IMG/VR virus record: IMGVR_UViG_3300036846_000555
Span: 32,001 to 96,000 of that record
DNA: 64,000 bases
Strand: one strand, 5' to 3'
DNA from: a virus
The notes under the pieces were generated by a model that ran no database searches, was not told the origin of the DNA, and saw only the letters and a list, made by a program, of their open reading frames with translations. Positions within the stretch are counted from its first letter, which is position 1. Each line of letters starts with the position of its first letter. Made by a program: the position numbers and the translations under genes. Of this stretch, positions 1,640 to 64,000 are shown piece after piece.

Positions 1640-1750
1640 TTCTCAGCCGGGTTCCCCACCCCGGCTGAGTCGGCCCCTCGGGGCATCATCATGGGCGCGT
1701 TGCGCCTCCCGGGGAGAAGCAGGCAGAACACATCACGAGGAGCAACGCAC

Positions 1751-2806
1751 ATGAACGGCAATCCATATGGGGTCTTCGGACGGCCGATCCGGCTGCTTGA
1801 GGCCTACCGCGAGTGGCGCGACGAGCGGATGCTGGAGGAGGCCGACTCCAAGGCCGACTTCCCATCCTTCCTGTACGGCCCGGTCCGTCAGTCGATGTGG
1901 ACCGGCTACAGCCGCGCCCAGGCGCAGTACCAGCGCTACACCCGCCAGGAGAACGCACCCGACTTCCGTGACCGGCGGCTGCGCGGCCTGAACGGGCTGC
2001 AGGGAATCGGCTACGTGGGCGACCACGGGCACTACCCGGGCATGGCGCGGACGGAGCGTCCGCCCGCCCGGCTGGCGGTCGACACCTACGGCGGCGTCTA
2101 CCAGATCACCCGCCAGGCGATCATCAACGACGACAGCAACGAGCTGCTGAACCGCAACCCGGCCGACATGGGCTACGCGGCCGGGGTGTTCATCCTGCAG
2201 ACCGTGATCGCGATGATCCAGAACCCCGGCAACGCGCCGGACGGCAACCCGTTCTACAGCGTCGCTCGCGGCAACCAGGTGGTCACGCCGCTGTCCGAGG
2301 ACGCGCTCGCGGACGCGATCGGGTTCATGGAGGCCCAGGTCGACGACGACGGCCGCCAGATCGTCGTCACGCCGCAGGTGCTGGTGGTCCGCAACGCCCG
2401 GATGCAGATGATTGCGCAGCGGATCCTGAACTCGACGCAGACCGGCACGCAGATCCAGTACACCGGCGCAGCCGGTGCCGGGTCCAACGTGTTCGACAAG
2501 GGCACGATCAACCCGCTGGCCGGGATCCTGCCCGCCGACGGCGTGATTCGCGACCCGTGGTTCAGCGATTCCAACGACTGGTACCTGTTCGCCGACCCCG
2601 GCGACGTCCCGTCGTTCGCCGTGGGCTTCCTCAACGGGCAGTCGGAGCCGCAGGTGATGCTCAAGGACCCGATGGTCCGGATGGCGCTCGGAGCGGGTAC
2701 CGACCCGTACCAGTTCGAACTCGACTCGGTCGACTTCAAGGTGAGGTCGGACTTCGGCGTGGCGCCTGTCGATCCCAAGGGCGCGTTCCGCTCAATCGTC
2801 CCGTAA
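1751..2806 (+). CDS. Major capsid protein (Mu gpT-like, HK97 fold)
   Basis: TYGGVYQITRQAIINDD motif typical of Mu-like capsid proteins; N-terminal LEEA-DSKADFP; RBS GAGGAG before ATG 1751. Confidence 0.85.
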   Translation: MNGNPYGVFGRPIRLLEAYREWRDERMLEEADSKADFPSFLYGPVRQSMWTGYSRAQAQYQRYTRQENAPDFRDRRLRGLNGLQGIGYVGDHGHYPGMARTERPPARLAVDTYGGVYQITRQAIINDDSNELLNRNPADMGYAAGVFILQTVIAMIQNPGNAPDGNPFYSVARGNQVVTPLSEDALADAIGFMEAQVDDDGRQIVVTPQVLVVRNARMQMIAQRILNSTQTGTQIQYTGAAGAGSNVFDKGTINPLAGILPADGVIRDPWFSDSNDWYLFADPGDVPSFAVGFLNGQSEPQVMLKDPMVRMALGAGTDPYQFELDSVDFKVRSDFGVAPVDPKGAFRSIVP

Positions 2807-9496: not shown

Positions 9497-12400
9497 ATGG
9501 CGGTAAGCCTGGAAGCCGTCTTCAACCTGATCGACCGGGCCAGCGGGCCGCTGCGCACGATCCAGCGCAACGCGATGCTGACCGACAAGGCGCTGGGCTC
9601 GATGGGCAAGAACCGGCAGCTCTCGATGCTCAGCGACAGCTTCGGCAAGGTCGGGTGGTCCTCCAAGCAGATGCGCGGGGAGGTCGAGAAGACGAGGTGG
9701 ACGGTGCAGTGGCTGGGGAAGGAGCTGGACCGCGACGCGCTCAAGTTCAAGAACATCAAGAACCACATCGAGAACTTCACCCGGTCGCTGGTGCAGTCGC
9801 ACCCGGCTATTCAGGGCGCCGCCCAGGGGCTGGGTGGTCTGGGTGGTGCGGTGAAGGGGTTCGCGACGGCGCTCCCGATGATGGGGACGCTGATCATCAC
9901 GGCGATCCCGATCATCCTCCAGCTCGCCGGGGCGATCGGCGCCGTCAGCACGTCCCTGATCGGGGCGGCTGGCGGCGGCGCGCTGCTCGGCGGCGGCCTG
10001 CTCGGCGCGTTCGGGGTCGGGCTCGGCTCGGTGGCGGTGCTCGCCAAGCCCGCGATCACGCAGCTCACCAACTACCAGAAGGCCGTCACCAACCTGAACA
10101 AGGCGATCGCGTCGGGGAAGCCGGGGCAGATCAAGGCGGCTCAGCTCAACGTTGACCGGCTCGCGAAGGCCAACCCGGGCGTGGCCGGGCTCGCACAGAA
10201 CATCGCCAAGTTCAAGAAGGAGTGGGACAAGGCGACGGCGCCGGGCAAGGCGAGCTTCCTCAAGCTCGCGAACGAGGGGATCGCGCTCCTGGTCAAGAAC
10301 ACGCAGTGGCTCGCCAAAGAGGTCGACAAGAACATGGCCGCGGTCGAGCGGGCGATCCGGACGCACATGGGGCCGTTGGTCAAAGCGCTCAAGCCCCTGA
10401 TCGGCGGGCTCGGCGGCGTCTTCCGCGCGAATATCGGCGGCGCCGTCGGCGGCGTCGTGGATCTCCTGAAGGGTCTCGGCAACATCCTCAAGGTCATCGC
10501 GCCGACCCTGGACAAGGCGGGCGGCGCGTTCCAGAGGATGGCCAAGGCGTTTGAGTCGTGGACGGGGTCGGCACACGGGCGGCAGACGGTCAAGAACATG
10601 ACCGATGCGTTCAAGGAGTGGGCGCGGCTGCTCGGCGGGATCGCGCGGATCATCGGCGACGTCATCGGCGCCGGGATGCAGACCGGCACCGGCGTGGTCA
10701 AGAAGTGGGCGGACTCCGTCACCGCCGTCGCCAACATGCTCGCGAAGCCGGGCGGCACGAAGGGGATCGAGAGCTGGTTCAAACGGACGATGGATCAGGC
10801 CGGGAAGCTCATGCCCGTCCTGAAAACCATCGCGTCGTCGATGCTCCAGCTCTACCAGATCTGGAAGCCGCTCGGGGCCGTTACGCAGGCCGTCTTGAAG
10901 GCTGTCCCGTCCTGGATGCTGACGGTGGGTGCGCTGGGCTTCATCGGCGGGAAGGCCGTCGCTGGAGCGGCCGGTCCCGTCAAGGCGATCGGCAAGGCGT
11001 TCGGCAAGTTCAAGGACAAGGGCGACCGGCCGACGGACCCGCTGTTCGTCGCGGTCGTCGGGGAAACCGGCAAGACCACCAGCGGTCTGTTCGGCGGCGG
11101 CAAGTTCAGCGAACGCCTATCGAAGTGGGAGGAGAAGGGCGGATGGCGAGGCAAGCTCGCCGGGGGTCTCCGGAAGGTCGGGATCGGCCGGGCCGCGGAA
11201 GAGGCCGAGCAGTTGGCGATCCCCGGACTGGAAGCAGCAGCGGGCGTCACCGCTGCAGGCGCCGCAGGCAAGGGCGGTCTGCTGAGCAAGGTTGGCGGCT
11301 TCTTCAGCAAGATCGGCGGCAAGCTCGGGCTCAGCGGACTGTTCAAGGGTGGCGGCGGCATCGAGGGCGAGATCGGCAGGCTCGCCAAGGTCGGTGGGCA
11401 CTTCGGGCGCTTCGGCGGTGTTGCTGCGCTGGGCGTCCCGCTGCTGGAGAGCATGATCCCGTCGAAGGTCATGGGGTCCACCGTCGGCAAGATCGCCGGG
11501 TCGACGTTGTCGGGCGCAGGCTTCGGCGCGATTCTCGGCCCGGAGGGCGCGGCGGTCGGCGCAGGTCTCGGCGCCGCGTACGGCGGAGCGAAGGCGCTCG
11601 GCCTGGACCCGGGGAAGCTCGGCGGTCTCGCCAAGAAGGGGTTCACGGCGGTCAAGGGCGCGGCTGGGGACGCGTGGAAGTGGATCAAGGGGCACTGGGA
11701 CTGGCTCGGCATCCTCGCCGGTCCGCTGGGGCTCGCGACCACGATGATCATCAAGCACTTCGGGGCGATCAAGAAGGCGATCGGCGCGGCGTGGAACTGG
11801 ATCAAGCGCGCCGCCACCAATGCCGCCAAGTGGATAGTGGACGCGTTCAGCAACGCGTGGAAGTGGATCAAGAACGCCGCCACCAATGTCGCCAAGTGGG
11901 TGTCGGGCGCGTTCACCAACGCGTGGAACTGGATCAAGACCGGTGTCAGCAATGCGGCGAAGTGGATAGTCGGCGCGTTCAACAACGCGTGGAACTGGAT
12001 CAAGGCTCTGCCGGGCAAGATCGCGGGCGTATTCGCCAAACTGCCCGGCCTGCTCCTGGGCGCGCTGAAGGGGATCGGGCACGCGATCACCAAGCCGTTC
12101 ACGGACGCGTTCGACTTCGTCAAGAAGCACATCCCGCACTTCCACAGCCACAAGATCCTCGGGGTCTCCGTGCCGCTCCCGTTCGCGGAGGGCGGCACGG
12201 TGCCGCGGACCACGGACGTGCTCGTCGGGGAGGCCGGACCGGAGGTTCTGCATCTGCCCGCCGGGACTCGCGTGACGCCAAACCATGCGCTGCCGACGAT
12301 GTACGCGCAGACCGGCACGCCCACGCCGATGCCCGGCAGTGCAGCGTCAGCAACGGGCGCGCGAGGAGCCCAGAACTTCACGCAGACGCTCCGGGCGACG

Positions 12401-14440
12401 CAGGTTGCGATGACCAAGCTTGTGCAGCAGTCGCAGCAGATCTTGGCGGCGCTGAACAACATGGGCAAGGCGCTCCAGAACACCGAGAACGAGCTGACCA
12501 ACCCGCGCTCGGGGATGGTGGGCGCACTCAACGCTGTTGAAACCGAGTTCTCGCAGTTCTCCAAGGCCAGCCACAACGCCGCCCAGGCGATCCAGAACGA
12601 CATGACCTGGCTCGGCAACCAGATGAACGCGATCCTGCCGCCGCAGAGCAAGGCGGCGTTCGACGCGATGGTGACCAACTTCACCGCCACCAGGGCGAGC
12701 CTGCAGAAGGTCTGGACGCAGGTGATCACCGACGTCAACTGGGGCGTCGGCCAGATCTTCAAGTCGATGGCGGGCGCGTTCAAGACGATGGGCGTAAACC
12801 CGCCTGCAGGCGTCGCTGCGGCCACGAAAGGCAAGGCGAGGGGTGGGCGCCTACCCGGGGAGCCGCGTGGCGACCACATCCCCCTGTACGGCTCTGGCGG
12901 CACGCTGCTGGGCATGGCTGACGGCGGGGAGCTGGTCGTCAACCGTCACACCGAGCAGCGCGTCAACCGGATGCTGCCGCGCGGGACGTCGCTCGGCGGG
13001 GAGGTCGCGGGCGAGACGACGCCGCACTTCAAGTCGGGCAGCTTCGCGCACGGCGGCCGGATCCCCGGCTACCAGACCGGCGGGGTGGTCGGCCAGATCA
13101 ACTCGCTGGCGTCCGCGTCCGGGTTCAACAAGACCGCCATCGCCGGGCTGCTCGGCAACGCGATGCAGGAGTCGAGCCTGAACCCGAACACGCCCGGCGG
13201 CGGCCTGTGGCAGCAGATCTCCAACTTCGGCTCGGGCACCGGCGGGTCGGTGCAGGCACAGTGGGCGCGGATGCTGCCGCAGATCATGGGCATCCGCGGG
13301 TCGATGAACAACGCGGGCAGCCCCGGCGCCGCCGCCACGATCTTCGAACAGTCGTTTGAGCGGGCGGGCATCCCGGCGCTCGCGAACCGCATCCGGTACG
13401 CGAACGCGGCGTTCTCGGGCTCGCTCGGCCCGCTCACCGGCGGCGCGGGCGCTGGCGGCGGTGTCGCGCCGACGATCAGGGCACCGGGAGTCAAGGGCCC
13501 GGCGGGCGCGATCACCGCGATGGGCCAGGCCGCGATCGCTCAGATCGTCAACGCCGCCAACAAGGCGGTGCAGGCGGCGCAGCCTGCGATCATCGGCGGC
13601 GGCGGCGGCGCGGGCCCCACGTTCGTGCCGACCGGCGGTCCCGTCCCCCCGAAGGTTCAGGCGGCGTTGCAGTTCGCGAACGAGCTGGCGACCCGCCATC
13701 CGCCGTACGGCCACCAGGGCGCCGGATGGGGACTCGGCGCCTACGACTGCTCCTCGTACGTGAGCACGGTCATGGACGCGGCGGGCATCTGGCCGAAGTG
13801 GGCGTACTACACGGCGGCGCAGCCGATCAACCAGCACACCGACCCCGGACCGGGCCAGTGGATCACGCTCGGCACGTGGGGCAGCTCGGGGCAGCAGGCG
13901 CACACGATGATGGAGATCGACGGCCACTACTTCGAATCGGGCGGCGGCGACGGCGGACCGCACCGCGACTCGGGCTGGTCGCAGAAGTTCGACCAGTACC
14001 GCCATCCACACGGCTTCGCGCTCGGCGGCGTCGTGGACAACGCGAGCGCGGCGAAGTCGAAGAAGAACCTGTTCCTCCGCGTGAACCCGGGCGTTGGCAA
14101 GGCCGGTTACCAGCCGACGCAGGAAGAGGCCGCGGGCATCCAGGCCAACCAGCAGGCGATCCGCACGCAGTTCGCGAAAGGTCACGCGATGGGCGGCTAC
14201 CTGCCGGTGCCGTGGTTCGCGGAGGGCGGCGACTTCATCGCCAAGCGCCCGCAGATCATCGGCGTCGGCGACCGGCCCGGCGGCGAGCGGGTCACGGTGC
14301 AGCCCGCGGGCCAGGGGCGTATCGGCAGTCCTGTCCACATCGAGATCCACAAGGTCGAGGTTCATCGCAAGGGCGACATCCAGAAGATCGTCGACGAGGA
14401 GCTGGCGGCGCTCGCCAGCTCGCTGGAGGCGCAGCTCTGA
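9497..14440 (+). CDS. Tape measure protein with C-terminal phage-tail-lysozyme-like and NlpC/P60 domains
   Basis: 1647 aa, Ala/Gly-rich with Trp repeats; AIAGLLGNAMQESSLNP (~13135-13420) and YDCSSYV...HTMM (~13650-14010). Confidence 0.9.
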   Translation: MAVSLEAVFNLIDRASGPLRTIQRNAMLTDKALGSMGKNRQLSMLSDSFGKVGWSSKQMRGEVEKTRWTVQWLGKELDRDALKFKNIKNHIENFTRSLVQSHPAIQGAAQGLGGLGGAVKGFATALPMMGTLIITAIPIILQLAGAIGAVSTSLIGAAGGGALLGGGLLGAFGVGLGSVAVLAKPAITQLTNYQKAVTNLNKAIASGKPGQIKAAQLNVDRLAKANPGVAGLAQNIAKFKKEWDKATAPGKASFLKLANEGIALLVKNTQWLAKEVDKNMAAVERAIRTHMGPLVKALKPLIGGLGGVFRANIGGAVGGVVDLLKGLGNILKVIAPTLDKAGGAFQRMAKAFESWTGSAHGRQTVKNMTDAFKEWARLLGGIARIIGDVIGAGMQTGTGVVKKWADSVTAVANMLAKPGGTKGIESWFKRTMDQAGKLMPVLKTIASSMLQLYQIWKPLGAVTQAVLKAVPSWMLTVGALGFIGGKAVAGAAGPVKAIGKAFGKFKDKGDRPTDPLFVAVVGETGKTTSGLFGGGKFSERLSKWEEKGGWRGKLAGGLRKVGIGRAAEEAEQLAIPGLEAAAGVTAAGAAGKGGLLSKVGGFFSKIGGKLGLSGLFKGGGGIEGEIGRLAKVGGHFGRFGGVAALGVPLLESMIPSKVMGSTVGKIAGSTLSGAGFGAILGPEGAAVGAGLGAAYGGAKALGLDPGKLGGLAKKGFTAVKGAAGDAWKWIKGHWDWLGILAGPLGLATTMIIKHFGAIKKAIGAAWNWIKRAATNAAKWIVDAFSNAWKWIKNAATNVAKWVSGAFTNAWNWIKTGVSNAAKWIVGAFNNAWNWIKALPGKIAGVFAKLPGLLLGALKGIGHAITKPFTDAFDFVKKHIPHFHSHKILGVSVPLPFAEGGTVPRTTDVLVGEAGPEVLHLPAGTRVTPNHALPTMYAQTGTPTPMPGSAASATGARGAQNFTQTLRATQVAMTKLVQQSQQILAALNNMGKALQNTENELTNPRSGMVGALNAVETEFSQFSKASHNAAQAIQNDMTWLGNQMNAILPPQSKAAFDAMVTNFTATRASLQKVWTQVITDVNWGVGQIFKSMAGAFKTMGVNPPAGVAAATKGKARGGRLPGEPRGDHIPLYGSGGTLLGMADGGELVVNRHTEQRVNRMLPRGTSLGGEVAGETTPHFKSGSFAHGGRIPGYQTGGVVGQINSLASASGFNKTAIAGLLGNAMQESSLNPNTPGGGLWQQISNFGSGTGGSVQAQWARMLPQIMGIRGSMNNAGSPGAAATIFEQSFERAGIPALANRIRYANAAFSGSLGPLTGGAGAGGGVAPTIRAPGVKGPAGAITAMGQAAIAQIVNAANKAVQAAQPAIIGGGGGAGPTFVPTGGPVPPKVQAALQFANELATRHPPYGHQGAGWGLGAYDCSSYVSTVMDAAGIWPKWAYYTAAQPINQHTDPGPGQWITLGTWGSSGQQAHTMMEIDGHYFESGGGDGGPHRDSGWSQKFDQYRHPHGFALGGVVDNASAAKSKKNLFLRVNPGVGKAGYQPTQEEAAGIQANQQAIRTQFAKGHAMGGYLPVPWFAEGGDFIAKRPQIIGVGDRPGGERVTVQPAGQGRIGSPVHIEIHKVEVHRKGDIQKIVDEELAALASSLEAQL
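11789..12006 (+). repeat. 22-aa (66-bp) tape-measure repeats, about 3.3 copies
   Basis: AWNWIKRAATNAAKWIVDAFSN / AWKWIKNAATNVAKWVSGAFTN / AWNWIKTGVSNAAKWIVGAFNN / AWNWIK. Confidence 0.85.
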
Positions 14441-20100: not shown

Positions 20101-21903
20101 GCGCAATACAGCCAGAACTATTCGCAGCCTGCAATCCAGATACTGGGGTCTGCCACGGCCTCCGACAAGATCCAGTGCAAGGCGGGCGATTATCTTGAGC
20201 TGTACGCCCTCAACTCGCAGGGTCTGACGACGTGGTCCGGGGTCAGCGCGAACTACTTGTCTGTGGCGCTGATCGCTGCCGGGCCTGGTCCACAGGGGCA
20301 GCGCGGCTCCAACTGGTTCACGTACACGGGCGCGGGCACACCCGCTGCCGGGACGTTCACCGGCGAGCTTGACGGCGACATGGCGGTCAGGGCATCCGAT
20401 GGCGAGGTGTTCCGCCGCATCGCTGGCGCGTGGGCGGACCAGAACTGGAAGCAATCGACCGGCATGGCGACGATGGATAAGTGGCATCAGGTCGGGCAGC
20501 CCGGTGAGCCCGCTTTCCTCAACGCTTGGGTGAACTATGGCGGCACGTATGCGCCCGCGCAGTTCCGGAAGTACCCCGACGGGACGGTCAGGATCCGTGG
20601 GCTCGTGCAGGCCGGAGCCAGCAGCACGGCGGTGTTCACGCTACCGCCCGGCTACCGTCCGCAGACCGGCCAGCAGATCATCAACGCCACGGACATCAAC
20701 GCAGAGGTCCACTCGCGCTTGGAGATCTACCCCGACGGGACGGTGATCCTCATCTGGGTGGCTCCCGGCGGCAGCGGCTACGCCTCGATCAACTGCAACT
20801 TCGACACCGACACGGTGACGAACTACGCGGTTGGCACGCGGGGGGCGAACTGGTTCGCGTATAGCGGCGCGGGCGTGCCGCCGACGCCGTCGTTCACCGG
20901 CGAGATCGACAACGACATGGCCGTGCGCACCTCCGACAGCGAGGTGTTCAAACGGATCGCCGGAGTGTGGACCGACCAGAGCTACAAGGCTGGCGTGAAC
21001 ATCACGTCAACAGCACAGGTCACGGCACGGATGCACGTGGGGGCAGCCCAGACAACGAACGGCTGGACGAAGGTCGCGCTTGACACGATCGACTTCGACG
21101 CGAGCGCCACCGTTGCCGACCTACCGAATCATCGGATGATCGCTCCCACGACCGGCTACTACCGGATCACGGGCCTCGTCACCTGGGGCGGGTCAACGTG
21201 GACGGGGACTTGCATCGCTTCGGTTTACGTGAACGGAGTCGAGACCCGTGGGATGGAGCAGTACGCCACCGGGAACGGCAGCGACTTGCGGAGCTTCCTG
21301 GTTGACGATGTCTTCCGTCTGAAGCAGGGCGATGTCGTCGAGCTGTGGGCCTACTCAGCCGTGGGCTTCAGTCTCAACGTCGGCCCGGTGGCGGGGTGCT
21401 TCCTGTCCATGACGCTGGATACGGCCGGGCCCGGCCCGCAAGGACCGCCAGGACCGGGACCGGGCGGCTCGGTGCAGCGCAACATCGGCAAGTACGCGGG
21501 CTACAACACGATGTCCGGGAGTGCCAACATCCTGGACGGAGCAGGCGGCGGAGGTGCCGGGAACGCGCTGATCCTGACGGTCACGCCGACCGTGCCGTCG
21601 TGGTGGGAGGTCAACTTCTACTGCGCGAACATCCTGGCGGTATCGGCCGCGTACTACTACACGCAGCTCACAATGGGCCTCTCGCCCGCCGACCTGGATG
21701 GAATCAGCGCCACCGACGGCTGGGTGATCACGCAGCACAGCCAGGTGCAGACCTACGAGGGCCGCGCGTTCCTGCGTATCTTCCGGCTGGCGGCGAATCA
21801 GACGTACACGATCACACCGGCGCTCGCAACCTCGGGCGGCTCGTTCCAGTACTACACCGCGCCGTCACACCTCTGGATCGAAGGGAAACTATGGCCGCAG
21901 TAG
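17182..21903 (+). CDS. Central spike N-terminal domain fused to a long fibre (collagen, tail collar, three C1q-like domains)
   Basis: N-terminal ~90 aa resembles XkdR/DUF2577-type spike OB folds; GXY repeats at ~17482-17661 and ~17827-17950; collar motif [23 protein letters not shown]; C1q-like repeats. Confidence 0.8.
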
Positions 21904-22268
21904 GGACATACGCGTTCGTGGACAAGACCGAGGGCGTGGTGACGAATCTCATCACCGCAGGTGAGGAAATCCACCCTGCCGACATCCGTGAGGACACGCA
22001 CTGGGTGGTGGACGTGACCGACCTGCCCACGCAGCCCGAGATCGGCTGGGCGTACGACGGGGCGACGTTTACTGAGCCCGTCGCTGACGTCAACCGCCGG
22101 TCGCTGAACCAAAAGGCTGCGAACGCGTTGAAGGGCAACCAGACGTTCCAGGCGCTGCAGTCGCCCACTAACGCGCAGGTGCTGGCGCAGGTGCAGGCGC
22201 TCACCCGGCAGGCGACTGCGCTGATCCGACTGGTGGCAGATCAGCTCGACACGACGGACGGGGCATAA
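21891..22268 (+). CDS. Tail fibre assembly chaperone-like protein
   Basis: ATG 21891; VDVT...PEIGWAYDGATFTEP motif typical of small fibre-associated proteins. Confidence 0.6.
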   Translation: MAAVGTYAFVDKTEGVVTNLITAGEEIHPADIREDTHWVVDVTDLPTQPEIGWAYDGATFTEPVADVNRRSLNQKAANALKGNQTFQALQSPTNAQVLAQVQALTRQATALIRLVADQLDTTDGA

Positions 22269-22270
22269 CA

Positions 22271-22603
22271 ATGCCGATCTACATCGTTTTCGTAGTCAAC
22301 CAGTCTCCGGCGGAGACCGATATAGCTCCGACGTGGGCGATGCTCAACCGGGCGGACAGCCCCGAGGACGCGGTGCAGGAGATCATTGCGACTGGCATGC
22401 TGCCGCCCAGCGACGAGGTCTACGTCAGCGACGTGACCGACGCGGACATCTTCATGGTGGAGCGCACGATCGACGTGACGATCAAGCCGGTGCCGTCCGG
22501 GGACCCGCCGCTGGTCCAGCATCTGGCCGCGGAGCTGCCCGCGGAGAGTCTTCCCGTCTCGGAGGACGTTCCCGTGTCGGGCAACGGGGGCGCTGGTGCC
22601 TGA
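22271..22603 (+). CDS. Hypothetical acidic protein
   Basis: 110-aa ORF between fibre genes. Confidence 0.55.
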   Translation: MPIYIVFVVNQSPAETDIAPTWAMLNRADSPEDAVQEIIATGMLPPSDEVYVSDVTDADIFMVERTIDVTIKPVPSGDPPLVQHLAAELPAESLPVSEDVPVSGNGGAGA

Positions 22604-28349: not shown

Positions 28350-28522
28350 TCCCCCTGTCCCAGACCTGCATAGCTTGCGGCCGAGACAAGCCCGCAGACC
28401 AGTTCTACGTCAGGAGGGACGGGCGCGAGCCTCGGCTCACCGGACGATGCAACTCGTACGCCAACACGCAGCCAGCGTGCGGTCCCTGTAACTGTCGGAA
28501 GGGCGGAAGGGTGGTGATCTGA
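28346..28522 (+). pseudogene. Internally deleted HNH endonuclease remnant (58 aa; not in the ORF track)
   Basis: MIPLSQTCIACGRDKPADQFY...ANTQPACGPCNCRKG joins a CxxC N-terminus directly to an HNH C-terminal NxQxxCxxCNxxKG motif. Confidence 0.6.
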
Positions 28523-28586
28523 AACGACCGACGTCACCGACCTCACCGAGATCTTCTCCGAGACGCTCGCGCGCGTCCGGGCCCGG

Positions 28587-30029
28587 ATGGATCAGGACGC
28601 CAACGCCGGGCTGACCGACGACGACCCGGACTGGGTCGACACCCGCGAGGGCTCGTTCTACTGGGACATGACGCAGCCGTCCGCGATGGAGTGCGCGCGG
28701 CTGTGGGATGCGATGACCGAGACGATCGCCGCGGCGTTCCCGTCGACCGCGTGGGGCGACTATCTCGACGAGCACGGCACCACGTTCGGGCTGACGCGCA
28801 ACCCGGCGACGCCCGCCACCGGGCAGCTCACGTTCCTCGCGTCAGCGGCGACGCTGATCGCGGCCGGGACGCAGGCGTCGGCGGTCGCTCCGCTGACCGG
28901 CGACGTGCAGAGCTACCAGACGACCGCGAGCGGCACGACCAGCGCGCCGCTGAAAGCGCCGACCGGCGTGGCGGTGGCCCCGAACAACGCGGGCGGCAAG
29001 CTGACCGCAGCCACCCGCTACTACCACGTGACCGCGCTGAACGCGTTCGGGGAGACGACCGGCACCGCCGACATCGCGGGCACGACGACGGGCACGGCGG
29101 GCCAGAACGTGATCACCTGGGGGGCGGTCACGGGCGCGACGTCCTACAACGTGTACGTCACGCAGACGGCGCAGTCCACCGGCGCGCTGCTCGGGAACAC
29201 GACCGCTCTGACCTACACCGACAACGGCAACGTCACGCCGAACGTCGCCGCGATCGAACCGACGACGAACACGACGTCGGGCATCACGCTCGACGCGGTC
29301 GCGTTGACGCCGGGCACGGCGGGCGACGTTGCCCCGAACGCCGTCACGTCGCTGGACACGGTGCTGCCGACGGTGATCTCGGTCACGAACCCGGTGCCGA
29401 TGGATGGCGGCACCGAGCTGGAGTCAGACGACGACTTCCGGCTGCGGATCCTCGGCGAGTACGTCGGCACGTCGGGCGGCGGGAACGTCACCGACTATCG
29501 GCGCTGGTCGGCGGGGGAGGGCGTCTCGCGCGTGGCGGTGATCCCGTGCTGGAACGTGACGGCGCAGAATCCAACGGGTGCCGGGACGGTGCTGGTCGTC
29601 GCGATGAACGCGGACGGCTCTCCGGTCGCGACCGCGACGGTCACCGCGCTGCAGGAGTTCCTTGACCCGGTGCCGGGGCTTGGGCAGGGCCAGGCTCCGG
29701 TTGGCGCGACGGTGACGGTGGTCACGTCCTCGATCCTGACGGTTACGATCTCGGCCACGGTCGTCGCCGAGAAGGGCTACTCGCTGGACGGCACCGGCAA
29801 CACCATCGCGACGCGGCAGGCGATCATGTCCGCGCTGGCGACCTACCTGCAGGGCCTGCAGCCGGGCGACACGATCATCTACGAGCACGTCCAGGCGGCC
29901 TTCTTCGTCACCGGCGTCCACAAGGTCAACAGCCTGCTGGTCAACAACGCCACCAACGACATCACGCTCGCGGCGGGCGCGTCGCCGCAGGTGGCGCTGC
30001 TGGGCACCGTGACCCTGACGGACGGCTGA
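28587..30029 (+). CDS. Baseplate J-like protein (XkdT) with FN3-like insertion
   Basis: DTREGSFYWD, WGDYLDEHG and SGGGNVTDYRRW motifs; the frame is open upstream to 28518 with no canonical start codon. Confidence 0.85.
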   Translation: MDQDANAGLTDDDPDWVDTREGSFYWDMTQPSAMECARLWDAMTETIAAAFPSTAWGDYLDEHGTTFGLTRNPATPATGQLTFLASAATLIAAGTQASAVAPLTGDVQSYQTTASGTTSAPLKAPTGVAVAPNNAGGKLTAATRYYHVTALNAFGETTGTADIAGTTTGTAGQNVITWGAVTGATSYNVYVTQTAQSTGALLGNTTALTYTDNGNVTPNVAAIEPTTNTTSGITLDAVALTPGTAGDVAPNAVTSLDTVLPTVISVTNPVPMDGGTELESDDDFRLRILGEYVGTSGGGNVTDYRRWSAGEGVSRVAVIPCWNVTAQNPTGAGTVLVVAMNADGSPVATATVTALQEFLDPVPGLGQGQAPVGATVTVVTSSILTVTISATVVAEKGYSLDGTGNTIATRQAIMSALATYLQGLQPGDTIIYEHVQAAFFVTGVHKVNSLLVNNATNDITLAAGASPQVALLGTVTLTDG

Positions 30030-58499: not shown

Positions 58500-60540
58500 C
58501 TGGCTGAACCGGCTGCAGGAGGCCGCCGAGATCCGGACCGGCAAGAAGGTCGTCGACGCCGACTACGTCGAGCTGCTGGAGGCCTCAGACGTCGAGCGGC
58601 GCGCCATGCAGAAGGAGCTGGATCTCCTCGGCTGGTACGTGCTCGACTATATAGGCGGGCAGCCTCAGGAGGTCAAGCCTCAGGAGCGCCGTCGGATGGC
58701 GGCGCAGGCGCGCATGGTGTGGGTGCAGGACCCGGTCGCTGGAGCCAACGTCGAGCTGTCCTGCAACTTCATCTTCGGCCGCGGCGTCCCGAAGCCGAAG
58801 GCCGCCGACGAGAAGGTGCAGGAGGTCATCGACGAGGCGTGGGACGACTCGGACAACAAGGCGGTGCTGACCACCTACCCGGCGCAGGTGGCGCTCTGCA
58901 CCGATCTCGTACTCCAGTCCAACCTGTTCCTGCTGTTCTTCCAGGGCGACGACGGCAAGGTCAAGCTCGGCCTGCTCGACCACGACTCCGTCGAGGACGT
59001 CGTCCGCGACTCCAACAACCGGCTGCGGGTCCTGTACTACGTCGCCCGGCGCCGCACCTACGGCTGGGACTTCGACAACGACCGGCCGTCCATCCGGGCT
59101 CAGATGGACAGCCAGGATCCCAGCAAGCCGCGGGTCATGTACTACCAGTCGCTCGCCGCCACCGACTCCGAGACCGGCGAGCTGGACACCGAGGACAACC
59201 AGTGCCCGCCGACCAAGCTCGGCGACGGGCTCGTCTACCACATCGCCATCAACCGCGGCTCCGAGCAGGTGTTCGGCGTCCCGGCGATGCGCCGCCTCGT
59301 CAAGTGGATGGCCGCCCTGAACGACTTCATGGCCGCCCGCGTCGACCTGACGCAGGCCGCCGCCGCGTTCATCATGCGCCGGTCGGTGAAAGGCTCACCG
59401 CAGCAGGTGGCGAACATCGCCGCCAAGGCCATCTCCCGCCGGTCGAACCTCGCGGCGACGTCGATCGACGACCCGTCAATGGGCATGATCCAGCCGGGCC
59501 CGCGACCCGGCTCGATCCTGAACGACTCCGACGCGGTCACGACGCAGCCGTTCACCGTCCCGACGCAGGCGGCGCAGGCGGCGCAGGACGCGCAGATGAT
59601 CCGCTCCCAGATCAGCGCCGCGACCTGGCCGCAGCACTACCTCGGCGACCAGTCCAACGCGAACCTCGCGACCGCGACCGCGCTGGAGCTGCCGGTCGTC
59701 AAGAAGGTCGAAGCGTTCCAGGAGCTGTTCGAAGGCCTGTTCCGCACGTTCATCGACCGGTCCATCCAGCAGGCCGTCGACAACGGCACGCTGCCGACCG
59801 CGCTCACGCCCGAGGAGCGCGCCAGGCTCAAGTCAAAGAAGCCGGAGAACCAGGTGCCGGGCGCGCCGGGGATCACGCCGCCCGCCGCTCCGATCCAGAC
59901 CGAGCCGCCGTCGTCGCAGACCGAGCCGAGCACGAACGGTGCCGCGCCAACCGCGCTCAGCGCGGGCTACGAGGGCCAGACCGAGGACGAGGAGGACACC
60001 GAGCGCGACCTGAGCTATGAGTTCTCGATGCCGAATCCGCTGAAGCGCCAGATGGCCGACCTGGTCAACTCGATCGCGAACATCGCGCGCACCTTCGACC
60101 CGAACAACACCAACGTCGAGCTGTCCCGCACGCTGCTGGGCGTCGCACTCGGCCAGGGTCTGGAGCTGGCCGACCCGGCCGCCGCCGTCGAGCGGATCCT
60201 GCCCGAGGGGTACGTCGACCCGATGCTCGCGGCGCAGATGCAGGCAGGCGGCGGCGGAGGTCCGCCACCGCCGCCGCCGCCGCTGATCCCGGACGAGCCG
60301 AATATGTTCGGGCCCGGCGGCCCGGCACCCGGCGAGGGTCCGACGCCCGGCCAGGGCCCGGACGGCGAGCAGAACCCGTACGGCGCGCAGGGCTTCAGCT
60401 CCGCATACCAGGGCAACCAGGGCCAGATCGGCGAGGCGTCCGCGCGCCAGGCGGAGCTGGAGGCGCTGCTGGAGCAGGAGCTGGGCGCGATCGTCGACGG
60501 GCTGCTGGCCGAGGCCAGCACGAACGGCGACGGGCACTAG
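58492..60540 (+). CDS. Portal protein with Pro/Gly-rich insertions
   Basis: 682 aa, directly before MuF; NFIFGRGV and HIAINRGSEQVFGVP segments. Confidence 0.75.
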   Translation: MADWLNRLQEAAEIRTGKKVVDADYVELLEASDVERRAMQKELDLLGWYVLDYIGGQPQEVKPQERRRMAAQARMVWVQDPVAGANVELSCNFIFGRGVPKPKAADEKVQEVIDEAWDDSDNKAVLTTYPAQVALCTDLVLQSNLFLLFFQGDDGKVKLGLLDHDSVEDVVRDSNNRLRVLYYVARRRTYGWDFDNDRPSIRAQMDSQDPSKPRVMYYQSLAATDSETGELDTEDNQCPPTKLGDGLVYHIAINRGSEQVFGVPAMRRLVKWMAALNDFMAARVDLTQAAAAFIMRRSVKGSPQQVANIAAKAISRRSNLAATSIDDPSMGMIQPGPRPGSILNDSDAVTTQPFTVPTQAAQAAQDAQMIRSQISAATWPQHYLGDQSNANLATATALELPVVKKVEAFQELFEGLFRTFIDRSIQQAVDNGTLPTALTPEERARLKSKKPENQVPGAPGITPPAAPIQTEPPSSQTEPSTNGAAPTALSAGYEGQTEDEEDTERDLSYEFSMPNPLKRQMADLVNSIANIARTFDPNNTNVELSRTLLGVALGQGLELADPAAAVERILPEGYVDPMLAAQMQAGGGGGPPPPPPPLIPDEPNMFGPGGPAPGEGPTPGQGPDGEQNPYGAQGFSSAYQGNQGQIGEASARQAELEALLEQELGAIVDGLLAEASTNGDGH

Positions 60541-60578: not shown

Positions 60579-63500
60579 GTGGCGGTCCCCGACCAGCAGG
60601 CACCACCGCAGACGCATCCGCAGGTTCAGCGCCTGCTCGACGCTGCGCAGACCGGCGCGACCATCGCCGCCGCCGGTCAGGTCACGAAGGCGGCGACCGT
60701 CGGTCCGGGAATCGCGGTCGCGGCGCCAGCGGTCGCCGCGGGCAAGATCGTATCGGCGGCCGCCGAGCCGGTGGAGTTCGGCATCAAGGTCGCGCTCGCG
60801 CTCCGGATCCTGCGCCGCCTGTTCCGCGGCCACAAGATGGAGAGCGCGAGCTGGCTGGAGAACGAGCTGCGCCGCCGCTTCCCCGACGCCGACCCGGCCG
60901 TGATCCGCGCCGCGGTGCAACGCGAGATGACGTTCGAACAGGCGTTCCAACGCAAGGCGCTGGCCCGCACCGAGACCGACATGCACGCCGCCGGGCAGCT
61001 CCCGACGCCGCGGGCGCGCGCCAAGCGTGCCGGGGAGATCATCGCCCGCGAGAAGCACTACAACGCGCTGCGCGAAAAGGCGCTGCTGAACCGCGCGGTC
61101 GCGCATGTCGAGAACGCCGGGGTCAAGGCCGTCTCACCGCAGGGCGCGAAGTGGGTGCTCGGCCAGCGCAAGAACCACACGCTCGGGTGCCTGGCGCTGG
61201 CGGGCAAGAACTGGCCGTGGGAAGTGCTGGACATGATTCCGCCGCCGCTGCACACCGGCTGTGGCTGCAGCCTTGCGCCGCTGAAGCCGGGCGACACGGT
61301 GCCGCCGGTGGCGCAGGCGCTGCGCGCCGCGCAGGCCGCCATGGCGCTGGAGGAGGCTGTCCGCAGCGTCGCTGACGCCGGGGAGATCAACGCCTACCTG
61401 GACGGCTGGCCGGTCCGGCCGAGCGTCGAGCGCGCGCTCATGCAGCTCACCGAGGCCGACTACAAAGAAGCGCTTCATCCCCGTGGCCGCGGTGGCCGCT
61501 GGGTGCAGATCCTGAACAAGATCAAGGCCGCGAAGATGGACGACATCACCGACGTCGAGGGCCACAGCGTCATGCGGCTCAAGGACGAGGGCTACAGCGT
61601 CCGCGTCGGCGCCGGGAACCGGGTCAGGACGCACGATCCGGAGGTGGTCGCTGACGCGATCGTGAAGCATCTGGACGAGCGGGCGAAGCTGGGCACGCCG
61701 GTGACGCTGGCGAACATGGACGACAACTTCCAGAAGTGGTTCAGCCCGCAGAAGCTGGACGGCGGCAAGGAGACCCATCCGAAGTCCGGCTACGACGTGC
61801 ATGTCGGCAAGTGGCTGTCGGTCAAGCAGCCCGAGCCCGACGTCGACGGCCCGCCGATCTTCAAGGTGACCGACTACGGCGCGCACGCTGGCGAGCAGAT
61901 GTTCCCGACGGATGCCGGGACGCAGCCGATCCGGGAGCTGTACCGCGGCATGAGCATCGACGAGTGGAACCAAGCCGTCGAACGTGGGTACATCCAGTCA
62001 GACCGGCGCGGCGTGATCGGAAGCTGGGAGGGCACGAACGCCGGGATCGACCCGCAGACGTCGCAGTCCTACCTGCCGCGCGGCGCGGAGTCGGTGATCG
62101 CGAAGATCGCCGTGCGGCCCGAGGATGGGTGGTTCGCCCGCAACGAGGACGGTTACCTGCGCACACGCAACCGGGTCCCGATGAGCCAGGTGACGGCCGT
62201 CTCGCCCGTCCTGTACAAGGATCCCGACGAGGGCCTGTTCGTGCGGTCTGACTCAACCTCGGCTGCTAAACTCACAAAGGAAGCTAATGGACAACGAACA
62301 GCTCAAACAAGAGGCGCTGCTGGGAGCGGTGGACGAGCACGGGGAGCCAACCTGGTTTCACTCGCCTCGCTCGATGCGTCCACCGACGCCGGATACAAGC
62401 GCTACACCGACGCCGTCCGAGCCAACCCCCACTCCGAGTACGTCACCCAGCCGTCCCAAGCAGAGCTAGGCGCCAAGCGGGTCTGGCTCTCGGACGACGG
62501 TCAGACCGGCGTCACCGTCTCGGCGGACGGCGAGGTCGGGAACCTGTTCGCCAACAACGACCAGGGCGCCGGAGGCGCGGCGCTTGATCACGCCGTCGCG
62601 AACGGCGGCACGTGGCTGAACTGCTTCGACGGGGCGCTCCCGAAGATCTACCAGCGCCACGGGTTCACCGAGGTCGCGCGCCTGAAGTTCGACCCGGAGC
62701 ACAAGCCTGAGGGCTGGGACATGGCGAGCCTGGACTCGCCCGACGTCGTGTTCATGGGCCACGGCGGCGAGCCGGTGCATCCGGTGCCGACGTTCACCGA
62801 CTGGGACACTGCCGAGCGCGCCGTGCTGGAGCACATCGGGGCGCTGCAGGAGGCGCACTGGACCGAGTGGCTGCACCCCCGCGGCCGGGGTGGTGTCTGG
62901 GTGGACGCGATCCACCACGAGATCAAGGAGCCCAAGGCCGAGAAGCCGCACGCGGAGTTCACCGGCGAGGACTTCGCCCGGGCGATGGACGGCTTCACGC
63001 ACGGCGGGATCACCGCGGTGCGCGCGAACCGCACCAGTGTCCAGAACCTGTACGGCGAGGTGTGGCTGAACCTGCAGAAGCAGGGCGAGATCCGGCCGGT
63101 CGGGCTGGCGCGCGTGATCGTCAAGCCGCCCAACCACCGCGGCGAGCGTGTCGCGGAGCTGGCGAACATCTACCTGCACGAGGACGAGCAGGAGCACGGC
63201 TTCGGCCGGGCGTTCACCGACTACTTCCTCAAGACGCTGCGCGACGGCGGCGTGGACAAGGTCAACGTCGAGGCCGTCTCCGTCGGCGGCTACGCGTGGG
63301 CCCGGCGCGGCTTTCAGTGGACGGCCGACAAGAAGGCCGAGCAGCAGCGGATCGTCGCCGACGCCAAGACCGACGGGCGCTGGGCGGAGATCGCCCGGCG
63401 CACACCACCGGCGGCGCTGGCCGAGTTCGAAGGCAAGATCGAGCGCGGAGAGTTCTCCTCCGAGGCGGAGCTGGCCGCCTACGGCATCGACCAGGGATGG

Positions 63501-63998
63501 CGCGAGTCTGACCCGGCGACCGGCGCGAGCACCGGCGCGCGGATGTGGCTCGGCAAGCAGCTCATGCTCGGCTCGCGCTGGAAGGGATCACGGCCGGTCA
63601 CCGTCACGGCCAGCCTGCAGGAGGCGCTCGACGAGCTGGAGCTGAGCGAGCGCGCCGAGGAGATCCGCCTGCTGTGGGATCCGGCCAAGCACGCGCGAGG
63701 CTGGCACGGGCACTTCGCCGAGATGCTCAAGCAGCTCCCGAAACCAGGCCTGCGCGGCCGCGGCGGCGGGCGGATCGAGGTGACCGACGGCCACCGCGTC
63801 ACCCGCACCCGCCACGGCTTTGAGGTCACGCATCCCAGCGGCCACACCGAGACGGTCGCGACGGCGGAGGAGGCCGCCACGATGGTCCACGACCGCTACG
63901 AGTCCGCGCGGATGGAGGCCGAGGTCAAGGCAGAGCTGGCCACCTCCGCGATCGAACGCGAGACACGCAAGCAGCGCGAGCGCGAGCAGCGCAAGGCC
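60579..63998 (+). CDS. Giant MuF/SPP1-gp7-family head protein with ART-like and two GNAT-like modules (3'-partial, at least 1140 aa; not in the ORF track)
   Basis: GTG 60579 with TAGCCT-N6; no in-frame stop to the window end by manual translation; PPPLHTGCGC at 61239-61268; LYRGMS at 61938; LNCFDGALPKIYQRHGF; EQEHGFG...GGYAWARRGF. Confidence 0.8.
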   Translation, partial: MAVPDQQAPPQTHPQVQRLLDAAQTGATIAAAGQVTKAATVGPGIAVAAPAVAAGKIVSAAAEPVEFGIKVALALRILRRLFRGHKMESASWLENELRRRFPDADPAVIRAAVQREMTFEQAFQRKALARTETDMHAAGQLPTPRARAKRAGEIIAREKHYNALREKALLNRAVAHVENAGVKAVSPQGAKWVLGQRKNHTLGCLALAGKNWPWEVLDMIPPPLHTGCGCSLAPLKPGDTVPPVAQALRAAQAAMALEEAVRSVADAGEINAYLDGWPVRPSVERALMQLTEADYKEALHPRGRGGRWVQILNKIKAAKMDDITDVEGHSVMRLKDEGYSVRVGAGNRVRTHDPEVVADAIVKHLDERAKLGTPVTLANMDDNFQKWFSPQKLDGGKETHPKSGYDVHVGKWLSVKQPEPDVDGPPIFKVTDYGAHAGEQMFPTDAGTQPIRELYRGMSIDEWNQAVERGYIQSDRRGVIGSWEGTNAGIDPQTSQSYLPRGAESVIAKIAVRPEDGWFARNEDGYLRTRNRVPMSQVTAVSPVLYKDPDEGLFVRSDSTSAAKLTKEANGQRTAQTRGAAGSGGRARGANLVSLASLDASTDAGYKRYTDAVRANPHSEYVTQPSQAELGAKRVWLSDDGQTGVTVSADGEVGNLFANNDQGAGGAALDHAVANGGTWLNCFDGALPKIYQRHGFTEVARLKFDPEHKPEGWDMASLDSPDVVFMGHGGEPVHPVPTFTDWDTAERAVLEHIGALQEAHWTEWLHPRGRGGVWVDAIHHEIKEPKAEKPHAEFTGEDFARAMDGFTHGGITAVRANRTSVQNLYGEVWLNLQKQGEIRPVGLARVIVKPPNHRGERVAELANIYLHEDEQEHGFGRAFTDYFLKTLRDGGVDKVNVEAVSVGGYAWARRGFQWTADKKAEQQRIVADAKTDGRWAEIARRTPPAALAEFEGKIERGEFSSEAELAAYGIDQGWRESDPATGASTGARMWLGKQLMLGSRWKGSRPVTVTASLQEALDELELSERAEEIRLLWDPAKHARGWHGHFAEMLKQLPKPGLRGRGGGRIEVTDGHRVTRTRHGFEVTHPSGHTETVATAEEAATMVHDRYESARMEAEVKAELATSAIERETRKQREREQRKA

Positions 63999-64000
63999 GA

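Follow-up and report, generated by a model that had tools for sequence, protein, structure and literature searches.

The window analysed here is a 64,000-nt stretch of DNA (bases 32001-96000 of the 122,349-bp viral record IMGVR_UViG_3300036846_000555) from an uncultured high-GC phage (GC 0.687). Directly after the portal gene it carries an open reading frame (ORF), P0002, whose product is a string of enzyme-like modules separated by a recurrent sequence of ~24 residues, which we call the junction tag. The tag returns in other giant proteins of the same genome, sits at module borders, travels with enzyme cassettes from protein to protein, and is found in widely different phages. We consider it on balance probable that these chains are head cargo, cut in this lineage between Glu and Ala of LxEA (written LxE/A) by a protease with the fold of T4 gp21, in such a way that the HPR core of the tag is kept on each unit as a common recognition element.

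P0002 has a GTG start at position 60579 of the plus strand, the portal gene ending at 60540, stays open to the end of the window and reaches its stop at 64385 in the parent record. The full product has 1268 amino acids (aa), and the GC content at third codon positions (GC3) in this frame is 0.91. A first-pass annotation of the same DNA had noted an ORF of at least 1140 aa adjoining the portal gene; this ORF is real, the extension of the contig that the annotation had proposed completed it, the neighbouring gene does match a portal family (Table 1), and all the motif coordinates given there match the translation of P0002. Two further giant ORFs follow, P0003 (1068 aa as listed, with a true start probably at Met40) and P0005 (716 aa), whose cargo includes a CCA-adding enzyme, HD hydrolases, DUF7178 and a zincin-like module.

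Sequence and register of the junction tag

In the genome that encodes P0002 the tag is a unit of ~24 residues in fixed register, [LV]xE[AS]-x-[YWF]-x-E-x-L-HPR-[GD]-R-x-G-x-[WF]. From 115 distinct instances the consensus of the lineage was L(-10)-Q-E(-8)-A-x-[YWF](-5)-x-E(-3)-x-L-H-P-R-G-R-G-G-K-W-[IV]-x-K-L-G, numbered from the His, so that the Glu of LxE precedes the HPR core by 8 residues. The strict form HPRxxxGxW was found six times in the six-frame translation of the genome, against 0-1 copies (mean 0.15) in 20 shuffles. Five of these six copies fall in the three consecutive giant ORFs, P0002, P0003 (twice) and P0005 (once), and the sixth, at residue ~26, belongs to a protein of 476 aa that contains two PG_binding_1 domains.

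The similar linkers that had been described at three boundaries of P0002 are confirmed by these data, the third being a degenerate copy (HARGWHGHF); the module that follows it, M4a, is preceded by a canonical tag in the relatives P0012 and P0036. That first description placed the motif within one ORF, where it is real; its range turned out to be wider, with copies in P0003, P0005, the peptidoglycan (PG)-binding protein and other lineages. At positions with identical amino acids, 48% of the tag codons are identical, versus 56% expected from codon usage, which supports that selection acts on the tag peptide and not on the DNA.

The use of CCC for Pro, common to all six local tags, was considered as a general rule and was not upheld among 41 tags, in which the Pro, Arg and Gly codons vary. 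The tags favour T-ending minor codons when compared with the surrounding ORFs: His CAT reaches 32% versus 14%, Arg CGT 29% versus 8%, and Gly GGT at tag position +5 ~33% versus 9%. This excess could reflect slower translation where modules meet, or be left over from the origin of the tag.

Position of the tag at module borders and transfer of cassettes

Around 30 mosaic relatives, on contigs of 107-126 kb, share the N-terminal ~290 aa of P0002 and diverge downstream, where they carry NUDIX, Zeta-toxin kinase, 2H/LigT, ADPrib_exo_Tox, cytidylate kinase, CCA-adding enzyme, GNAT, DUF7178 and HicA domains, together with one to four tags per protein. In the five proteins P0003, P0009, P0020, P0028 and P0033, no tag falls inside any Pfam domain. 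Among the mosaic relatives, the edges of high-scoring segment pairs lie within 30 aa of a tag His in 41% of the starts and 62% of the ends, against 12% for random positions, and the M1 block starts at His+11 of the tag in three proteins (P0007, P0009 and P0010), at a different position in each of them. The comparison of motif and domain boundaries in homologues, which had been suggested as a check, thus places the tags at borders and not at random. Judged from sequence, the linker is a real and conserved element of module borders.

A cassette with the CCA-adding enzyme illustrates how such units move. In P0033 it is bracketed by tags with their His at residues 922 and 1412, with PolyA_pol starting at 942, and in P0003 of the genome studied here the same cassette shows identical offsets (tag His at 94 and 584, PolyA_pol start at 114). 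Such cassettes are transferred whole from one protein to another, flanking tags included. The tag is not present at every domain border, since M1b and M2 of P0002 are joined by a Gly/Ala-rich linker, and therefore one tag-delimited unit can contain two domains.

Distribution of the tag in other phages

With a tag profile of 35 columns, built from 49 tags, 1.84 billion cluster representatives were searched, of which 302 matched at E ≤ 1e-3 and 66 of these at E ≤ 1e-10, so that the motif search in phage proteins proposed in the first-pass annotation reveals a widespread element. The core found in other lineages is [WFY]-[D/x]-E-x-[LK]-H-P-R-[DG]-x-x-G-[RK]-[FW], as for example in DWDESKHPRGEHGRW. 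The universal core of the tag is [WFY]xExx-HPR-xxxG[RK][FW] and its LxEA part is lineage-specific, from which it follows that the two halves of the tag need not share one function.

The highest copy number, 16 tags each, was found in P0084 and P0077 (7334 and 5313 aa), which are neighbours on one 409,570-bp contig. Their tags, of the variant DWDEsKHPRGEHGRW, are spaced by ~180-1300 aa, and these two proteins are the most extreme tag users found.

The genomic context of tag-bearing proteins from other lineages was checked in three cases. P0146, with seven tags and an ART-PolyVal domain, lies in a run of giant ORFs downstream of a Portal_Mu gene; P0114, also with seven tags, combines Phage_Mu_F, Zeta_toxin and ADPrib_exo_Tox domains and comes after TerL and a probable portal gene; and in the cultured Gordonia phages GodonK and Phendrix (121-122 kb) the 1479-aa gp67, encoded right after the portal, carries a tag at residue 28. 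A search for published virion proteomics of GodonK or Phendrix found none.

The junction tag is apparently undescribed in the literature. The paper on polyvalent proteins (PMC5512222) does not describe it, the strings 'HPR' and 'linker' having 0 occurrences each in its text, and the paper on MuF toxins (PMC5576092) reports no junction motif. Literature searches for the motif string returned nothing relevant, which is not proof of its being undescribed. Pfam has no model that covers the tag. LPD1 (PF18796) was considered as a known model of it and discarded, because its match in P0050 falls on SPHELWARAYAQW and not on the tag.

The prohead protease and the LxE sites

P0037, a protein of 501 aa whose ORF precedes the decoration and capsid genes, has no Pfam or PHROG match, although 402 homologues were found. 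Its protease domain covers aa ~1-230, and His80, His103 and Ser172 are invariant. A model of its residues 1-300 (mean predicted local distance difference test score, pLDDT, 81.8) matched the T4 prohead protease gp21 (5jbl) with Z 8.8 over 139/165 aa at a root-mean-square deviation of 3.6 Å. This was the sole match at Z ≥ 5; the next best reached Z 4.3, and the herpesvirus assemblins of varicella-zoster virus and human cytomegalovirus 4.1 and 3.5. Foldseek found gp21 with a probability of 0.90, and in the viral structure library BFVD there were 37 matches at E ≤ 1e-3, the named ones being mostly capsid maturation or prohead proteases. On the evidence of the model, the N-terminal domain of P0037 is a prohead protease of the T4 gp21 fold.

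P0037 contains 14 [LIVM]xE[AS] sites versus 2.4 ± 1.5 expected (z 7.9; none of 1000 shuffles reached 14), which lie in its scaffold half and are nearly all conserved in 15 relatives. The capsid protein P0040 carries two invariant LxEA sites at its N-terminus (RLLEAY and xLEEAD), just before the conserved fold, in all 21 relatives, and the portal protein P0004 has such sites at residues 8 (LQEA), 28 (LLEA), 646 and 672 (LAEA). In P0002, P0003 and P0005, all eight [LIVM]xE[AS] sites are placed at tags or borders, and the N-terminal tags of this lineage that have no module upstream, those of PG-binding proteins, show no LxEA. The cleavage motif of T4 gp21 itself is (L/I)xE. In T4 the scaffold is degraded by gp21 and the short targeting peptides of IPI-III and Alt are trimmed (PMC9958956, PMC7411985), and the protease of phage SPN3US cleaves after AxE (PMC10052503). 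A Glu-directed cut at LxE/A is plausible because a gp21-fold protease with a scaffold saturated in LxE[AS] is encoded here and such sites are also found in capsid and portal; a maturation cut at LxE/[AS] is credible in this lineage only.

A proposed mechanism and its alternatives

According to the reading that we favour, P0002 would be a polyvalent head-cargo protein. Its conserved N-terminal domain, M0, would be the anchor for a set of enzyme modules that differs between relatives, travels inside the capsid and is delivered along with the DNA. The same header of ~24 residues would start each cargo unit in P0002, P0003, P0005 and the PG-binding protein. Its first part, [LV]xE/[AS], would be cut inside the prohead by the gp21-fold protease to separate the units, and its second part, the [WFY]xExx-HPR-xxxG[RK][FW] core, would stay on the new N-terminus of each of them, where it could help to load the unit into the head or to keep it there, or act as an exosite for the protease.

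Several observations weigh against this proposal. As the HPR core is downstream of the putative cut, it would not be removed, unlike the capsid-targeting sequence of T4. Positions -10 to -7, the LxEA part, are strongly conserved in the P0002 lineage only and weakly in the others, where the cut site or the specificity of the protease should consequently differ. The purging of LxE[AS] from module interiors was rejected as a general rule, with 135 sites observed versus ~95 expected in 33 relatives, and so the arrangement of all eight sites at tags or borders in the genome studied here may be luck. The tag region of P0002 has no confident predicted structure (pLDDT < 50). The assignment of M0 is a motif-level resemblance to MuF, by motif and position, and sequence profiles do not establish its membership of that family. 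Finally, P0005 itself might provide a rival processing enzyme, a zincin-like HExxH module known from a short signature.

The tag could instead be a docking motif, repeated on a polyprotein that is never cut, which binds one partner (the packaged DNA, the portal, the scaffold or the inner surface of the capsid) and keeps the chain in the head or guides its exit. In the P0002 lineage the core is basic and Gly-rich (RGRGGK), with aromatic flanks and no confident fold; 61 of 361 tags (~17%) fall within the first 60 residues of their protein, with nothing upstream to cut off, and delivery without cutting is known for the virion RNA polymerase of phage N4 and for some polyvalent proteins of plasmids (PMC5512222). 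We nevertheless regard docking on an uncut chain as unlikely, because the fixed-register LxE[AS], the gp21-fold protease and the LxE-saturated scaffold point to cutting, and the core is acidic or neutral elsewhere (HPRGEHGRW, HPRDEAGRF), so that a generic nucleic-acid-binding RGG box is not expected.

A different enzyme could also do the cutting. In its C-terminal third, P0005 (67850-70000 in window numbering) shows a zincin-like signature, HE[IA]xH ... EE[AG][LI]xEE, which is conserved in 9 homologues, among them modules internal to five other polyvalent proteins with tags. The tag might be the recognition or cleavage site of this putative metallopeptidase, acting autocatalytically in the head or after ejection, as has been suggested for MPTase domains of polyvalent proteins, with the prohead protease uninvolved. 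Iyer et al. (2017, PMC5512222) have argued that polyvalent proteins in general rely on an MPTase to free their units, and an enzyme that travels with the cargo would fit a tag whose HPR core is universal and whose LxEA is not. However, the peptidase assignment is a short signature in a protein that has no Pfam or PHROG match at all, the module is present in 8 of ~170 tag-bearing proteins compared, and it is the prohead protease, not this module, that accounts for the LxE[AS] enrichment of scaffold, capsid and portal, in such a way that we hold processing by the zincin-like module to be quite improbable.

That the tag is mainly a recombination joint for module swapping, without a biochemical role, agrees with shuffling breakpoints that coincide with tags and with cassettes that move with them, but it is very improbable given the conservation at the amino-acid level with free synonymous variation (see the codon comparison above), the longest shared DNA runs of a few bases, and a core kept across very distant lineages with nil DNA identity.

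The proposal of cargo cut by the prohead protease can be extended beyond this lineage, with considerable doubt. The HPR header may possibly be a general and portable cargo signal of tailed phages that marks units for loading, cutting or exit and allows cassettes to be exchanged across hundreds of phage lineages. It would then be comparable to the capsid-targeting sequence of T4 or to the cargo-loading peptides of encapsulins, from which it would differ in being repeated in polyproteins and retained on the mature cargo.

Comparison with known systems

Polyvalent proteins are giant phage proteins with 2-15 unrelated effector domains (ADP-ribosyltransferase (ART), GNAT, NUDIX, 2H, RelA/SpoT, zincin peptidase). 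Their genes stand among late or virion genes, often with MuF, and the prediction is that the products are packaged, reach the host early and are then divided into units (PMC5512222). P0002, with an ART-like, two GNAT-like and further domains in one 1268-aa chain by the portal, shares with the proteins defined by Iyer, Burroughs, Anand, de Souza and Aravind (2017) both the presence of at least two unrelated effector-type domains and the context of virion genes. Its anatomy fits this known class, and the addition is the regular header of each cargo unit, one conserved tag of ~24 aa that is not in the description of Iyer et al. The processor differs as well, an MPTase being the one proposed there and the prohead protease the best candidate here.

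The polymorphic MuF toxins that Jamet et al. (2017; PMC5576092) described in temperate phages likewise have a conserved N-terminal head domain, encoded next to the portal, and variable C-terminal domains of enzymatic or toxic kind. They consist of a single toxin domain accompanied by an immunity gene, whereas P0002, MuF-like by motif and position, has several modules per chain and no evident immunity gene, and its cargo resembles repair or counter-defence enzymes.

In T4, enzymes and anti-defence proteins (the internal proteins IPI-III and Alt, the latter an ADP-ribosyltransferase) reach the prohead by means of a short conserved peptide and are trimmed by a Glu-directed protease of the same fold as P0037 (PMC7411985, PMC9958956). 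The T4 tag is N-terminal, ~10-20 aa long, located upstream of the cut, discarded, and present once per protein; the tag core described here is on the downstream side of the putative cut, would remain on the cargo, and recurs within polyproteins. Many head-internal proteins of SPN3US and phiKZ are also cut after Glu by a gp21-like protease, and their propeptides may hold several sites (PMC10052503); these propeptides are long and N-terminal, in contrast to the short header repeated between enzyme modules.

The proteins that a phage delivers decide the first minutes of infection, in which restriction, tRNA cleavage, depletion of nicotinamide adenine dinucleotide and similar defences are faced, and outside T4 little has been established on the way in which enzymes of different kinds enter capsids and are released as working units. 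The tag may mark how phages load and separate their injected enzymes, and polyvalent proteins would have a regular 'grammar' in place of being arbitrary strings of domains. If the header does delimit cargo units, proteins injected by metagenomic phages could be found with a sequence rule, loading and processing would become open to direct tests, and proteins of choice might be packaged in phage heads by means of it.

Modules of P0002

The features of the window are collected in Table 1. The small domain M1a (model pLDDT 61-72) gave generic fold matches only, at Z ~4.5. It is followed by M1b, which contains YRG at aa ~455-457 and whose fold comparisons use a low-confidence model, with a mean pLDDT of 53. 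With VIA-align the best structural matches of this model were Tpt1 (7yw2, Z 6.6, 101 aa, 3.4 Å) and CC0527, of the DUF952 family (Z 6.2), and the ART toxins TreTu/TreX (5.7), LT (5.2) and DarT (5.0) came around one Z unit below; more than 20 of the top 50 matches belong to the ART superfamily, all at Z < 8, the later ones including pertussis toxin and PARPs. Foldseek returned CC0527 (2o0q) with E 4.6e-3, probability 1.00 and 114/114 columns, and KptA/Tpt1 with probabilities of 0.63-0.91. In the model, M1b looks like an ART fold nearer to the Tpt1/KptA RNA 2'-phosphotransferases and DUF952 than to protein-targeting toxins.

The two GNAT-like modules differ in their support. M2 contains Q-G-A-G-G-A and matches phrog_2563, and its homologues are annotated as acetyltransferase in Streptomyces phages and fused to a minor capsid protein in Microbacterium phages; for the homologue in Salutena, 34% identical, the HHpred note of the depositor gives 3BLN at 99.5%. 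A profile of M2 placed GNATs on top of the PDB matches, but at E 0.25-0.55, and no stand-alone M2 homologues were obtained by word-based search. M2 is thus probably a GNAT. M3 contains Q-E-H-G-F-G, in agreement with the acetyl-CoA-binding motif Q/R-x-x-G-x-G/A, and matches Pfam Acetyltransf_1 at E 0.0027 (18.4 bits, below the cut-off of 20.7). Seven of 26 family members match PF00583, with a best E of 4e-7, and 10 of the 12 PDB matches of the family profile are GNATs, the best being AAC(3)-XI at E 0.0018; the profile evidence supports M3 as a GNAT acetyltransferase module. Single-sequence PDB searches of M2 and M3 gave nothing significant.

M1a and M4a resemble each other weakly. Their families were aligned by hhalign with a probability of 43% (E 2.5e-4, 34 columns), whereas no BLAST similarity was detected between M1a and M4a, and hhalign found no similarity between M1b and M4b or between M2 and M3.

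The first-pass annotation had anticipated much of this anatomy, and its reading as a polyprotein with maturation cuts at LxEA is supported in part. Its second GNAT-like module is upheld by the profile of M3 and the Pfam matches of its relatives, and the first one is plausible from the PHROG match and annotated homologues of M2. The ART-like module stands at the level of fold, with moderate scores from a low-confidence model and with the shift away from protein-targeting toxins mentioned above. The similar small domain that it saw after tags 1 and 3 has some backing from hhalign and none from BLAST.

The cargo looks no less like a kit for RNA or nucleotide repair and counter-defence than like a set of toxins, because it includes the Tpt1-like module, the CCA-adding enzyme and the HD hydrolases, and in the relatives 2H, NUDIX and nucleotide kinases.

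Table 1. Features of the head-gene and cargo regions in window coordinates
Feature	Position	Strand	Basis
Prohead protease-scaffold fusion P0037, 501 aa	1..1226 (starts 279 nt before the window)	+	Model vs T4 gp21
Major capsid protein P0040, HK97/Mu gpT type	1691..2806	+	Pfam Phage_capsid_4, E 1e-35
Portal protein P0004, 682 aa	58492..60540	+	phrog_10963 'portal protein', E 2e-28
Polyvalent cargo protein P0002 (proposed)	60579..64000, past the window end to 64385	+	ORF translation, GC3 0.91
M0, conserved N-terminal head-association domain (proposed), MuF-like by motif (aa 1-290)	60579..61448	+	Shared by relatives
Junction tag 1, LTEA-D-Y-K-E-A-L-HPRGRGGRW (aa 290-308)	61446..61502	+	Motif scan
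M1a, small beta-beta-beta-alpha domain (aa 311-395)	61509..61763	+	Model pLDDT 61-72
M1b core, ADP-ribosyltransferase-superfamily fold, from model (aa ~422-572)	61842..62294	+	VIA-align, Foldseek
M2, GNAT-like module 1 (aa 601-755)	62379..62843	+	phrog_2563, E 2e-13
Junction tag 2, ALQEA-H-W-T-E-W-L-HPRGRGGVW (aa 755-774)	62841..62900	+	Motif scan
M3, GNAT acetyltransferase module 2 (supported by profiles) with helical extension (aa 777-1012)	62907..63614	+	Pfam, PDB profile
Junction tag 3, degenerate, SLQEA ... W-D-P-A-K-HARGWHGHF (aa 1012-1046)	63612..63716	+	Sequence
M4a, small domain (aa 1047-1105)	63717..63893	+	hhalign vs M1a family
M4b, after coiled-coil stretch (aa 1135-1268)	63981..64000, continues to 64382	+	Sequence

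The N-terminal domain M0

M0 is common to ~45 relatives at 47-83% identity. The motif PPPLHTGCGC (aa 221-230, 61239-61268) is part of a Cys/His knuckle in which H200, C204, P222, H225, C228 and C230 are invariant or nearly so in the alignment of the relatives, as is WPW212-214. By hhalign the knuckle stretch was aligned with YPPNGWNCRC of Mu F and HDRCGC of Caron gp4, in both cases without significance. In Mu itself F comes after the portal gene, in the same order as P0002. The identification of P0002 as a MuF/gp7 protein in the first-pass annotation therefore keeps its PPxHxxCxC motif and its place after the portal gene, without a PF04233 or PHROG profile match behind it.

P0002 did not match PF04233 even at E ≤ 1, nor any MuF model of Pfam or PHROG; one of 26 family members, from another lineage, matched PF04233 at E 5e-6, and no MuF PHROG was found on the M0 region among 9 distant homologues. 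A jackhmmer search started from Mu F had no match in the local protein set, and hhalign of M0 versus the N-terminus of P0114 was negative. The ESM Atlas gave a lead, 9 of 30 neighbours of M0 being in clusters with 27% PF04233 carriers (score 0.90), and the predicted complex of portal and M0 had a score of 0.00, which carries no weight either way.

Gene neighbourhood and further observations

No close relatives of this phage were found among cultured phages, from which only module M2 and a weak tag match were recovered, and the portal P0004 has no relative among them at E ≤ 1e-5. Its head genes are split, the portal and cargo block lying ~57 kb from the block of protease-scaffold, decoration and capsid genes in the linear record, whereas in Mu the corresponding genes are adjacent. 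Between P0002 and P0003 there is an acidic ORF of 118 aa (64401-64757 in window numbering), whose stop overlaps the likely start of P0003 at Met40, and which could be a chaperone or an immunity-type partner.

Three observations concern genes outside the window, in genome coordinates. The 937-aa product of 10672-13485 has a Zeta_toxin/AAA_33 kinase domain (E 3e-22) and, near its N-terminus, a degenerate tag-like RRILRGRGGRF; it is probably a further cargo protein. At 28491-29996 a virion structural protein of 501 aa has two internal repeats of ~250 aa (LPGLLFWLDAS ... WPD ... YDHAL ...) that are lectin- or LamG-like by eye, its sole family match being phrog_10356. At 21400-22400 a second repeated helix motif, K-x-x-T-S-T-E-F-V-R-A-R-A-R-E, sits at the C-terminus of the PG-binding protein and at the N-termini of the next two ORFs, each with a different domain, and may be another shared tag.

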